Shown here: positions 1 through 6,000 of the stretch, piece by piece | Layout: each line of letters begins with the position of its first letter | Numbering within the stretch: position 1 is the stretch's first letter | Program-made: the position numbers | From: Escherichia coli | GTDB lineage: Bacteria; Pseudomonadota; Gammaproteobacteria; Enterobacterales; Enterobacteriaceae | Length of the DNA: 64,000 nucleotides | Assembly: GCF_011045215.1 (NCBI RefSeq) | Contig: NZ_CP049201.1 | Reading direction: 5' to 3' (one strand)

Positions 1-3000
1 AAGAAAAACATTCTCTTACAGAAAAAGATCAAATCGTTTTTCTTCAATCTCCCATTGAAACCTGAACAGCATCTCTTGCCAGTAACAGACTGATAACCAT
101 TCATTATTCATAATAGAGACCAACATCGTCATATACGCCGGCACTCATCACGACAAGAATCAAAAAAAGTTATATATAAAAACTCACATAATATGGTTAT
201 ATGATTAGCTTCAGACATGTTAAAAATAGCATTTCTGTTCACTTTCTTTTTATAAAAAACGAAAGCCATTCTTCCACCAGTGCGCACACTCCTGTATTCA
301 ACCAACTCTGACAGCAGGTCATTATGAAAACAAAATCAAATCACATATATAGTGCATGTGCTGCTACTGTTGCTACCGTAGCGATTTTTTCAGAGAAATT
401 TTCGTTCATGCCCCATAGATGGTGAACATTTGCACAGATGCGGGATATGCAAAACGCCTTACCACCAACCTTCGAATGAAGGTTGATTTTTTTCGTTTTA
501 TCTGTGTTAGTTTATTTCAAAATAAGCCATGGGTTGAAAAAGGTAACGCAAATGGCGGAATTAATTCCGGTGGAATATTAACGTGATATGTTTTCGCATT
601 ATGGCTATTCTCGGGTGGAATAATCTCAAATGATTCGTAAGACATTGCGCCAAAAGGAGGGATGCAACCATTATTATAACGAACAGAAACATAAAGTGTC
701 TGATGCGTTCGCATTCTGATGATACATAAATACCCCTGACAGATTAACTGATTGAGCACAGGTGTAAGTTTTTCTGCTCTTCTCAGACGATTGGGACCAT
801 ATCTTTCAATGTCTGTTTTCCTGATAGCACACCAGTTATTCTGTCTGATTCGGGTCATAATCCATGTATACAGCTCACGGCTATCCTGTTCAAACTGGCA
901 TCGTTCAGACATGGGATAAAATATTGTGCTCGCTTCCTCCAGATACCAGTCCATGAGATGCATAGCTTTAAAAAGCGCAATTGATTCAATTTCCTCAGCA
1001 TCTTTATAGCAATAGCAGGTGAATAAACCCGCTATCCTCAGTATATTAGAACCTGCTTTCAGCACAATATCTCTGATGTGTTCCCACTCCCCTCCTGCAA
1101 GCGTTTTTCTTTCAATTTTAATCTGGTTTTCCTGCCACTCTCCCAACGCTTTCTTCGAAAGTTTTAATGTCTTCCTTTCGCTTCTCATTCCGGGGGAATT
1201 AATGCTATGGCTTGACAGAAACCCGTTAATCTTTTTATGAAACTCCACTAGGGTTGGTATTGTTACGAACTCGCCTTTCCTATAATCACGTACCCGGGAA
1301 GAGCCTCCAACCTGACTGTAAAGAAAACGGGAAAGAAATCCGCTTCCCCATGCCAGTACATCATTTTTATTTATATAATCCATAAAAACATTCGGCTGAG
1401 ACATTAATGAAAATGTCAGGCGTGGAGTAATATGATATTTTTCGTCTGCTCTCCCAAAATCAAACGGTTGTCCACTCCATGCTTTATTCAACAGACCCGG
1501 ATTATTTTTCAGATAGCTTCTGAAAAAAGTTACCGCTTCATCAGAAATAATCCCTGCCTCCAGATGTTCGTTGAGTCCTTCCGCAAGCGCTTTAAGCGAA
1601 ACATCTTCATAGATAAAATTCGGTCGAACCGGACGTGTCGGTTTATTTCTTTCGTGATTACGCAGTGCCTCTTCTTCCTGTTCCCCCGGATACCCCCGGT
1701 TAACAGCCTTTCTTAAATTGGCAGCAAGCGCTTTCTGCCGGGTATTCCAGATCTGTAGTTCAGTCTTATAATCTTTGTTTCTCTCTTCGTATTGTTGAAT
1801 GAGTCGATCAGCAAATTCGTAACAGGGGTTCATCACCAGTCTGTTTATCGTTGTTTTTCCCGCGCCTGGCTCTGCGATTGCCAACAGATAAAGTGAGCAG
1901 GGCTCCGGCATGTTGGTGTGAGGATGAACAACGTCAACCAATGACTGACAGGAGAGTGAGAGCGTTGCCAGTACAGTATTAAAAATGAGCTCCAGCGGAA
2001 GTTGGGTACTTTCATATAAGTCGTCAATAAGATATGCAAGCTCACTAGGAAATAATCTGTAGGTTAAATCAGTTGGGAAGTGGTGGGATGTCTGCAAGGA
2101 TTGCACATAATCGGGATTCATTGTAATGGACCTCCTTCGCATACTGTAATCAACGCAAAACTTAACTGTTCAGTTCAGAAACATACCGACATCGTGAGTA
2201 TGTTCGCTAACGTCGATAATAAAATGGCTTGTATCCATTCACCAGTCCCGGCGCATTTATGATGCTGACAAAAGTAAAACAACATGTGTGCACCCAGAAG
2301 TCTGGCATCGCAGCGACAAATGATGGATGCATGAAAAACAGGGAACATTACGCACCAGAGCATTGAGAGTCTTCCCCCGTGCCCAATACGAAAGTCATCT
2401 CAATCCACCAGTCTTCACTCTCTGGGATGGTTGTTTTATGAACAGAGTAAAAGTTTGAAGCAAAGCTGAGAACCTCTGTTTCCACGTAAAGGTCCGCTAT
2501 GAAGAAAAATGGGAGTTTACATGCTCAACTGATTTACCTGTAGCTGCTTGTTACGTGGTTATTCAACAATCCCACAAATATCCTGCATCAGATTACGGGC
2601 TGTCTGGCTAATTCCGCCAAGCTGGAAAAAACCGTGAATGACACCGAGGTAACGCTGGGCGGTACAATTTACTCCTTGTTGAATCATACGGGAAAACAGT
2701 TCCTCACCTTCATCGCGTAATGGGTCATATTCCGCTGTGATGATATGAACAGGTGGTAACCCATTGAAATCATTCCTGAATAATGGACTGGCTTCCGGAT
2801 GTTCTAAATCCAGACCGGAAAAATAAGCCTCATAACCACTAAGAAACGTGTCTTCTGTCAGCACATAATCACTACCGTTTAATTTGTAACTATCGCATGA
2901 TGCTGTTGCATCCAGCATAGGGTAAATAAGTATTAATTTTCGTGGTAACCACTGACCGATGTTTTTCACCCTCAGTGCTGTTATCAGTGCAAGATGTCCC

Positions 3001-6000
3001 CCTGCGCTATCCCCCATTAACGTTATTCTGTTGCGATCAACTTTCAACATTTCTGCGTGTTGCCACACAATATTAGCGGCATGTTCAGCATCGTCATGTG
3101 CCGCAGGATAAATATGTTCCGGCGCTAATCGATATTGTACAGCAATGACACGACAGCCGCTCAGGAAAGCAAGCTGTCGCAACTGATTATCATGGGTTAC
3201 AAAACCACCACTGACAAAACAGCCACCATGATAATAGACAATTGTGGATGACTCCCCATCATCGTTTAACGGCGAAAATATACGCAATAAAACATCGTCA
3301 ATAATCACATCACTGATGTTTACACGGGTTTCTGTATCGCCGGCCAGAGCAGTACTTTCTATATATCCGGCACGGCGTTCATCAAAGGTCTGGTCACGAC
3401 TGGATGGACGACCAGCCGCAACAAACTCGTTTACAAGGTTCGCGATTTCCTGTTCAAGAGCCATACGAATCATTTCCGGACGATCATATTTAAACAATCC
3501 TCTTGGAAGTATAAATACGCTGCTCAAAAAATAAAAGATGAATAACCATAGTTTCAACAGGTGTAATACTGGTACTTATGGTACATAGCAGCAATAAATT
3601 CTTTATTTTCCTGAATGTTAAGGAGGTTCCTGCTCTTAGGGACTTGCGGCAAGCGATACCCGGAACAGAATTATGTTTACGGTCTGGTTTGATATTGGAT
3701 TCAATATAATTAAAGCGTTCTCAAAAGTCTGACCGGATTACCCGCATACACGCCTTTTACCAGCACAGGCTTTATAACCACACTACCAGCACCAATCACT
3801 GCTCCACTGCAAATTTCTGTTGTTAAAATGGTCGCTCCGCTACCCACTGTTACAGTGTTACCTAATACGATGCGTATCCAGCTTTCTGCAGAGGCATCGG
3901 GACCACCACACTTAAAAAGATCATTAGCAAAAGTTACGCCATGACCGATGAAACAGCCATCACCTAAAATGACGTTCTCACAGATGAAACTGTGGGACTG
4001 AATTCGGCTCCGGTTGCCAATGATACATCCCTTCTGTATTTCCACAAAGGGACCGATAAAAACATCATCCCCCAGTTCACATTCATAGAGGTTTACTGGC
4101 ATGACGACTTTCACATTTTCACCAAATTTCACATCACGAATGCGGCTGTCAATAACGTTCATATCCGTTGTATCCTCCCTCAGGATGATTCTTATCAGAA
4201 CATTTCACCTGTCAGAATATTCCCGGTAATGTGATACAAGAGCCTGTCTCACCGGGTACCACGTGTTATTGCCCGTATCCTTTTGCCCGTTACGAGTGTA
4301 CAACCGGTTTTATATTTTGCAATCCAGGCCTGTTACACCAGAGCATCCTCTCACTGCCCCCTCACTGGTCAATCCGGGATTCAAAGTCATCCTCCAGCAC
4401 TAAACCCCATACCAGTCCTGAACCTTCCCTCGCCAGCAGCCAGACTCCTACTGTTCACCACAATCCTCTTCCGTGAATGGCCGTAAGTGCGCAGCACCAA
4501 AATAAATCGGTACTTCCGATGACAGACAGTGAAAGCGTCAGAGAAATATGAACATGAGAATGGAAGCAGATACATGACTTCAGGACGACTTTTTCAGAAA
4601 ACGAGCTAAGGGCGTCAGCCAACGACCTTACCGTGGTATACGCTCAGGCGCCGGATGCCGTTTTACCCGGTTCACCTGCCATCCAGCAAACGCCCCGGCC
4701 CACGACTGCAACCATAATTACGTTGCCCGGAACCGTCATGCTGCTTCGTCTCATATTTCACGAGATAACTGGCTCTGTTCCGAGCTTTCTGCATCGCTTC
4801 CACATCACCACGCTTGATCCAGAGAACAGCGGCTTCACCAGACTTTTTGTCTGAAGCCTTCCTGGTTTCAGAACATTCACCAGGCACAGGCGTATCATCG
4901 GAAGAAGGGCGAGCATCAGATGATGTCGGTTTACGGAAAGGCGTTGACAGCGTCCGCCTGGAAAAATGAACCAGTCCATTACCCTGCCAAGGCTCAAGAT
5001 GCAGAGCACTGCACCATGCCAGTTGGATCAGCGTCGCCAGCGAAGAAGGAACGGTGAAATCCCCTGGCGAGCACCAGGTATCTTTGTTGAGCAGTAATAT
5101 CACGTGATAATGTTTCCTGCCTTTTTCCTTGCCAAACTCCCGACACCAGAAATAACGCAGAGTGGTTGCGCGCACACGCTTGTTGGCACGTCGTTTTTTC
5201 CGCTGGTAAGCCTGAATTTTTGCTTTCAGGGATTCGAAAAAACGAGAAATCACCGCTGAATCTAAATCGGTATCCATGATGGTGGCAGGCATATACTCAG
5301 GAAAACGTAAATCCACCCGAATTAACGAGACGGCACGGTGTTGCGCCAGGGCACTGTTGAGAATGCTTTCAAAACGGGATAACCAGTAAGCATTGTGTAT
5401 TGGTTGATTCATGATGAGAGATCTCCGTTGATTTGGATTGACTTCACATCATTAATCACTGTGGTAAAACTTTACGGCATCCCGCCATTGAGCAACGCCA
5501 ATGGCTCCTGATTAAAACAGAATGAATCCCCCACGAAGAAAAGATAAACCTACACGCAGAGTGAAACACACAACAACGGCATAAATGGTTTTTAAAAACT
5601 ACAAAGCCTGAAGGGAAACGGATCAACAAAACGTGCAAACAAAACGTCAGAAACGCAATCAGAACGCTTTCTGGCTCTGTAAATCAACAACAACACCAAA
5701 ACCTACAGCTTAACCACACAACTCAATCACAGAGCCGAATAGCGCGCTTAAAACCTGTTTACAGATAACCCCGCCACAAGAACAAAAACCACCAATATCA
5801 GAATCGATTTTCTTATCCTGAAAACGTTACTTTTCAACACACCATAAAAACGATTAACCATCAATAACGTAAATCTCATCTGAATCAAAACACCAGAACC
5901 AATCATCACGCTTTTCCTGAAAAGAGCCTTATGATGAAGATAATCACCTTGCGCTGAGAAAAAACACCAGGGCCAGTTAATCATCTCATCAATCTCATTG

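Follow-up and report, generated by a model that had tools for sequence, protein, structure and literature searches.

This report concerns two adjacent genes, one for a predicted carboxylesterase and one for a hexapeptide-repeat acyltransferase, which lie between yfjJ and yfjI in a genomic island of Escherichia coli (contig NZ_CP049201.1 of assembly GCF_011045215.1; "the window" is the whole stretch of 64,000 nucleotides that was analysed, and positions refer to it unless another locus is named). We think it probable that the segment that carries them, 2350-4572, is cargo in a variable slot of an island of the CP4-57/CP4-44 type, and that it provides two autonomous enzymes that work independently of each other and of the element. 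An initial annotation of this DNA had read the two genes as island cargo rather than as part of a phage or element function, and this is borne out by the empty site in the GF43 island and by the presence of ireA in the slot of CFT073. It had also treated them as a pair, of a kind that can modify xenobiotics or surface polysaccharide, and here the evidence says otherwise: the two look like independent passengers and match none of the known families of resistance or defence, and the value of the result is mainly one of annotation.

In the GF43 island (L008), window positions 9-2349 and 4573-5587 are contiguous in a blastn comparison, with 1 bp between them, and yfjI and yfjJ are adjacent. Because the flanks are contiguous there, 2350-4572 is a clean 2,223-bp indel, that is to say a presence/absence polymorphism between conserved backbone genes. 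The work shows this slot in several states. It is empty in GF43, where homology with the window resumes at 4573; it holds ireA in CFT073, where homology resumes at 4360; in NCTC9699 and many others it holds the acyltransferase gene only, homology resuming at 3666 or 3706; and in Z1323MEC0001, GF60 and LH50-c, as in the window, it holds both esterase and acyltransferase, the alignment being contiguous except at about 3567-3666. Mosaic breakpoints are found inside the segment at about 3567-3666 and at 4360, and the stretch 4360-4572 (about 210 bp) also stands beside a yfjJ-like gene in the ireA islands and on a plasmid. The yfjJ-yfjI interval is a cargo slot of mosaic composition.

The linker between the two cargo genes is 245 bp long in the window, about 209 bp shorter than in the other islands with both genes (L017 5547-6000; L001), and the part of it that is kept across these islands amounts to only about 110 bp next to the esterase start. 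No direct or inverted repeats and no target-site duplications bound 2350-4572 (a possible 4-bp microhomology is all that was seen), so a transposon or cassette origin of the 2.2-kb segment is unsupported. As for the other known occupant of the slot, ireA is a siderophore-receptor virulence gene; in CFT073 it lies downstream of the yfjJ-like gene (L014 1460-5022), and the same junction fragment accompanies ireA on the conjugative plasmid pSTEC2018_166-c (L015 1487-4257).

Do the two enzymes travel together because they belong together? We matched 5,426 complete E. coli genomes to the window segment. Only three carry at least 80% of it, and with it both genes, against about 530 that have just the acyltransferase part, at 96-98% identity. 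In one of the islands with both genes (Z1323MEC0001) the esterase is a frameshifted pseudogene and the acyltransferase is intact. Orthologues of each protein, at 65-85% identity, are present in many Enterobacterales, and in the contexts examined either gene is solitary there, with unrelated neighbours. A scan with one genome per species gave 373 loci of the acyltransferase family, and among the best 80 of these 373, whose neighbours were compared, not one has an esterase orthologue within 6 kb (one locus has a paralogue with 33% identity); no neighbour family occurs in more than 13 of the 80, and those that recur reflect genus-level synteny only. In Mixta calida the acyltransferase orthologue has an Abhydrolase_3 gene at a distance of 3 kb, but we rejected this apparent pairing of orthologues, since its product and the window esterase share just 24% identity. 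Within one E. coli lineage, hundreds of assemblies have all four genes in this arrangement, both enzymes included; this recurrence is inheritance, not independent association. The comparisons thus indicate that esterase and acyltransferase are not a functional unit.

Each gene nevertheless appears to have been kept in working order. Between the window and other E. coli islands, the ratio of nonsynonymous to synonymous substitution rates (dN/dS) is 0.07-0.12 (0.10) for the acyltransferase and 0.20 for the esterase, versus 0.27-0.40 for the backbone gene yfjI, so that both cargo genes look functional and seem to be under purifying selection. The two enzymes are probably cytoplasmic, since no N-terminal signal-like sequence is found at the annotated starts.

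The esterase is a generic predicted carboxylesterase of family IV. Its match to Abhydrolase_3 is practically full-length (E=2e-67, 227 bits against a gathering threshold of 25; residues 106-311 of the open reading frame (ORF) cover profile positions 1-209 of 210), and its best solved relative is PestE (2yh2, E=7e-52), with which all the motifs align. In the numbering of the 301-residue protein these are the oxyanion motif HGG at 79-81, Ser153 in GDSAG, Asp247 in DPLRD, and His277; the strings HGGC, GDSAGG, DPLRDEGE and GVIHGF are invariant in 14 orthologues. With these motifs, a length of about 300 residues and no signal peptide, the protein resembles the family IV/HSL-type enzymes such as PestE, from which it differs in that the fourth residue of their HGGG is an invariant Cys in its own orthologue group. 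The conservation of the motifs leads us to infer the usual mechanism, in which Ser153 would attack a carboxylic ester with the assistance of His277 and Asp247, and the backbone amides of HGG would form the oxyanion hole. Comparison with Aes-type esterases, which the initial annotation had proposed, gave a negative answer: the protein scores 142 bits against the cut-off of 389 for Aes (PRK10162) and matches the Aes structure 4krx at E=9e-29 only; E. coli Aes is a distant paralogue. It is likewise below the NCBIfam cut-off for LipP1 (234 bits against 350). A promoter-like TTGAAA-18-TATTTT lies at 3557-3528; it is a consensus match only, promoter counts in the scan being at chance level, and we give no weight to the promoter and terminator scans of the locus.

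The acyltransferase, predicted to be of the left-handed beta-helix type, matches Hexapep in two stretches (62 bits, E=2.5e-17; the cut-off is 27 bits), has a GGAGG ribosome-binding site upstream of its gene, and finds 76 solved hexapeptide-repeat proteins in a sequence search of the PDB. Its family has a mean column identity of 75% and a range of at least 373 species, among them Enterobacterales, Vibrio, Aeromonas and Helicobacter; the invariant residues include E41, Q43, S56, H57, H74, N80, D81 and W95, and E62 is nearly so. When a profile built from 40 members of the family was searched against the PDB, the leading matches were QdtC (3fs8, E=1e-14), the WxcM-like protein of FdtD type 4mzu (E=1e-13), a 165-residue N-acetyltransferase (7s43, also 7s3u; E=2e-12) and WlbB (3mqg, E=2e-12), and the top four to five are N-acetyltransferases of nucleotide-linked 3-amino sugars. 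An F-x-N-D motif (N80 and D81) and an acidic residue at position 62 are common to the window protein and to QdtC, FdtD and 7s43; counted along the profile alignment, E62, N80 and D81 correspond to QdtC E141, N159 and D160. These QdtC residues are said to have a role in sugar binding. The likeness to QdtC, FdtD and WlbB consists, then, in their being the best solved relatives, in these shared residues and in a size close to that of the 165-residue enzyme; the window protein passes no NCBIfam model, however, and the similarity is low and comes in part from generic repeats. An AlphaFold2 model from the 40-sequence alignment has a regular pattern of short strands and a disordered C-terminus, at a mean predicted local distance difference test score (pLDDT) of 69. 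A Foldseek search of the PDB with this low-confidence model returned matches at E>0.3 only, to right-handed beta-helices and pentapeptide proteins; we discarded the model on account of its score and these meaningless matches, and relied on the PDB sequence and profile searches.

In Helicobacter pullorum NCTC 12824 (L079 1486-10166) and in a metagenome-assembled genome of Helicobacter sp. (L066 3128-8546), a protein 60-62% identical to the E. coli acyltransferase is encoded in a tight operon with an asparagine-synthase-like amidotransferase, a DUF354 protein, a GFO oxidoreductase, a formyltransferase, then (after the acyltransferase) a second GFO oxidoreductase, a DegT aminotransferase and two methyltransferases. 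The best match of the GFO-type oxidoreductases is UDP-GlcNAc 3-dehydrogenase, below its cut-off. Such a layout is what would be expected for oxidising, aminating and then N-acylating a nucleotide sugar, and the product of the operon's enzymes is probably a diamino or acylamido sugar. That the identity is so high between Helicobacter and Enterobacterales suggests horizontal transfer. In Vibrio mediterranei (L074 3251-9977) the acyltransferase gene is part of a run of about ten small genes on one strand, including an SDR, three GNATs, an AAA_33 kinase, a glyoxalase-like protein, a nitrilase and an OGFr_N protein, and it looks like an array of cassettes for modifying small molecules. Direct repeats of at least 40 nt, which are a weak proxy for attC sites, were not found in this locus, and we do not claim the status of integron cassettes for it.

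From the nearest solved enzymes and the Helicobacter operon we favour amine N-acetylation as the chemistry of the acyltransferase, the amine probably being that of an amino sugar. The enzyme, expected to be a trimer by analogy with its fold class, would move an acetyl group from acetyl-CoA to an amine, most likely the 3-amino group of a nucleotide-linked amino sugar or something similar, which E62, N80 and D81 would position. Selection would maintain both genes, probably for a modification of small molecules or sugars that is of marginal use to the host, and their adjacency would be an accident of insertion history in the island lineage. Of the surface-polysaccharide modification that had been suggested for both enzymes, the part that concerns the acyltransferase stands in an indirect way, through QdtC, FdtD and WlbB and the Helicobacter sugar operon; the esterase is without such support.

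We are aware that several points weigh against our interpretation. The substrate assignments of both enzymes are predictions made from sequence, and the acyltransferase model is poor (its low pLDDT and lack of a meaningful fold match were mentioned above). Behind the dN/dS values of the two cargo genes are as few as 15 and 36 substitutions. In E. coli and other Enterobacterales the acyltransferase is an orphan gene, with no aminotransferase or dehydrogenase nearby as a partner, and a sugar-nucleotide cluster is found only around the Helicobacter orthologues; the sugar-nucleotide role may therefore not carry over. The V. mediterranei context looks more like small-molecule detoxification. Finally, the recurrence of both genes in one lineage may leave room for co-selection of the pair in that lineage.

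How far do other explanations account for the same observations? That the two genes form a functional pair, carried as a unit for a cycle of acetylation and deacetylation or for a two-step modification of one xenobiotic or surface sugar, would agree with their adjacency, strand and constant order in those hundreds of assemblies and with purifying selection on both, and yet we consider it improbable. The linker varies from 245 to 454 bp and either gene comes with an upstream region of its own; those 530 or so genomes have the acyltransferase without the esterase, the esterase has decayed in one of the islands with both genes, and the two are never neighbours in the 80 species loci or in the other contexts examined. 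Besides, should the product of the acyltransferase be an amide, like those of its nearest relatives, a serine carboxylesterase would be an unexpected choice for the reverse reaction. We are just as doubtful that they are resistance genes, namely a Vat/XAT/CatB-like acetyltransferase with a chloramphenicol hydrolase of the EstDL136 type or some similar drug esterase. There are weak matches to the Vat, CatB and chloramphenicol hydrolase models; the Vibrio orthologue stands among GNATs and a glyoxalase/bleomycin-resistance-like gene, and a Citrobacter orthologue of the esterase among three GNATs; and ApmA, a hexapeptide-repeat N-acetyltransferase that inactivates apramycin (PMC7885111), provides a precedent. 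The matches, however, are far below the cut-offs. The esterase reaches 159.5 bits of the 500 set for the chloramphenicol hydrolase model (NF033149), and the acyltransferase, which is below all Vat, CatB, LacA, Maa and WbbJ cut-offs of NCBIfam, scores 33 bits against 300 for Vat_ABCDEFH and 35 against 425 for VatC. It does share with Vat, XAT and CatB the nature of a hexapeptide-repeat acyl-CoA transferase, but the likeness is confined to generic repeats in the last 50 residues or so (98-148), at 30-35 bits where the models ask for 300-450, and the protein has 150 residues where the models have 201-219 (Vat 201). Membership of the Vat/XAT group, towards which the initial annotation had pointed, is thus answered in the negative, and ApmA is absent from the best 60 of the 70 PDB profile matches.

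A more adventurous proposal concerns the acyltransferase alone: it would stand for a family of N-acetyltransferases derived from the 3-amino-sugar enzymes, acting by itself, which islands (in about 10% of complete E. coli genomes) would have captured for acetylating an amine-bearing antibiotic, a toxin or an envelope sugar precursor, with a change in susceptibility to drugs or phages. We hold this to be unlikely. It is very unlikely, in our opinion, that the cargo serves the mobile element or host defence, for instance by an anti-phage function or by a change in a receptor sugar at the surface that would exclude phages. The slots of P4-like and CP4-like elements often carry defence genes, and the acyltransferase resembles the makers of the acetamido sugars of O-antigens; against this, YfjI, the esterase, the acyltransferase and YfjJ have no match in PADLOC-DB 2.0, the island has no partner genes of a sugar pathway, and in hundreds of species the orthologues belong to the ordinary chromosome and not to mobile elements. 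Least of all do we believe that the two genes are decaying passengers without function. The esterase frameshift in Z1323MEC0001 could be read in this way, as could the esterase C-terminus, 5 residues shorter than in its orthologues, and the linker deletion in the window, which may have removed regulatory sequence; but both frames are intact in the window, the catalytic residues are invariant, and dN/dS (0.10-0.20) is lower than in the backbone gene yfjI.

We return, then, to independent cargo in a variable slot. On this reading both enzymes are new members of well-known superfamilies in a well-known type of island, and mechanistically unsurprising. A literature search on the backbone families and QdtC found no paper on the two cargo genes. 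The residual novelty is the strongly conserved, uncharacterised family of 150-residue acyltransferases, and this orphan family, widespread and under selection, is a lead of some value.

Table 1. Features of the yfjI-yfjJ region, in window coordinates
Feature	Position	Strand	Basis or remark
yfjI (DUF3987, P-loop, helicase-like)	517-2121	-	island backbone gene; ORF to 2142
Cargo segment, 2,223 bp	2350-4572	n/a	no counterpart in collinear GF43 island
Family IV/HSL-type carboxylesterase (predicted), 301 aa	2559-3464	-	Abhydrolase_3; ORF 2559-3557
Linker, acyltransferase stop to esterase start	3465-3709	-	alignment with islands L017 and L001
Hexapeptide-repeat acyltransferase (predicted), 150 aa	3710-4162	-	Hexapep
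Region upstream of acyltransferase, travels with its gene	4163-4572	-	comparison with other islands
YfjJ/YagK ("inovirus Gp2 family") backbone gene, HUH Rep-like	4672-5412	-	PF11726, PF23343

The four genes (Table 1) are real and not chance ORFs, judging by their strong family scores and the low dN/dS of the two cargo genes. All are where the initial annotation had placed them, on the strand and with the identities that it gave, and only two start codons had to be corrected. For yfjI, the second ATG, at 2121, is likely the true start rather than 2142, since it is preceded by GAAGGAGG as a ribosome-binding site and gives a gene of 1605 nt, the length annotated for YfjI in other E. coli. For the esterase, the start is M32 of the ORF, at 3464, because every orthologue begins with MALE and a protein of exactly this sequence is on record from E. 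coli. The exact acyltransferase and YfjJ sequences are also on record from this species, and the PGAP annotation already has "alpha/beta hydrolase" and "acyltransferase" for the two cargo genes. Among the backbone genes, YfjI matches Pfam DUF3987 at E=4e-73 and phrog_2373 ("DNA helicase") at E=2e-42, with AEPGAGKTT as Walker A motif; the YfjJ-like protein matches YagK_YfjJ_C (PF11726) at E=7e-37 and REP_ORF2-G2P (PF23343) at E=3e-10, has KHYHVIL as a HUH-like motif and matches PHROG families of replication initiation. The name "P4-like replication genes" in the initial annotation is a label; what stands behind it are the match of YfjI to a phage helicase PHROG and those of YfjJ to Rep-like families.

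The rest of the backbone is found at 9.3-16 kb, with a YeeP-like GTPase, DUF932, antirestriction, RadC, CbeA/CbtA, DUF5983 and DUF4942 genes. YfjI, YfjJ/Gp2, the YeeP-like GTPase, DUF932, KlcA antirestriction, RadC, YeeU/CbtA and DUF4942 together make the island similar to those of the CP4-57/CP4-44 type, associated with P4 integrases. The same backbone proteins are listed for islands at selC, pheU and pheV, and neither of the two enzymes is (PMC6174562). Unlike the CP4-57 type, the window has yfjJ and yfjI pointing away from the GTPase gene, with the cargo between them. In CP4-57 of K-12 we take yfjI and yfjJ to be adjacent. The island ends after the DUF4942 gene, and its right chromosomal flank is setC-yicL-nlpA (15185-21000), which presumably adjoins selC on the K-12 map. 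Identity of this core region with most complete E. coli genomes is no higher than about 97%. No tRNA gene was found in the window, the left end of the island with its integrase and tRNA being outside it, and no Rfam family matches window positions 1-17000 at E<=0.1.

Some further observations were made along the way. Upstream of yfjJ, inside an AT-rich stretch of about 2 kb (5413-7378) that has no ORF of more than 82 residues, short same-strand repeats AAAAYACNT(G) are clustered at 6094-6409: of 14 matches over the 64 kb of the window, these 316 bp contain six, and GAAAAYACNTG has three matches against 0.37 expected. Four other E. coli islands (L001, L007, L008 and L014) have similar clusters in the equivalent position; L016 and L017 do not clearly have one. 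The repeats are iteron-like, and the HUH Rep-like protein may bind to them or use them as an origin. Next to this stretch, two convergent genes at 7379-8233 (+, 284 residues) and 8230-9237 (-, 335 residues) overlap by 4 bp; they have no significant family match (a weak RepA/RepB-like C-terminal match at E=3e-4 only), are annotated as hypothetical, and in more than 1,000 E. coli genomes keep their place beside the gene for the GTPase. The YeeP/YfjP-like GTPase itself (9300-10184, +) has a weak PADLOC match to LeoBC over residues 183-286 (E=2e-7). Finally, beyond the island, 27678-36465 (-) codes for a giant inverse-autotransporter adhesin of invasin/intimin type, with an IAT_beta domain and at least 14 Big_1 repeats, which is split at about 31228-31271 into overlapping ORFs of 1745 and 1197 residues, the split being either a frameshift that makes the gene a pseudogene or a sequencing error.

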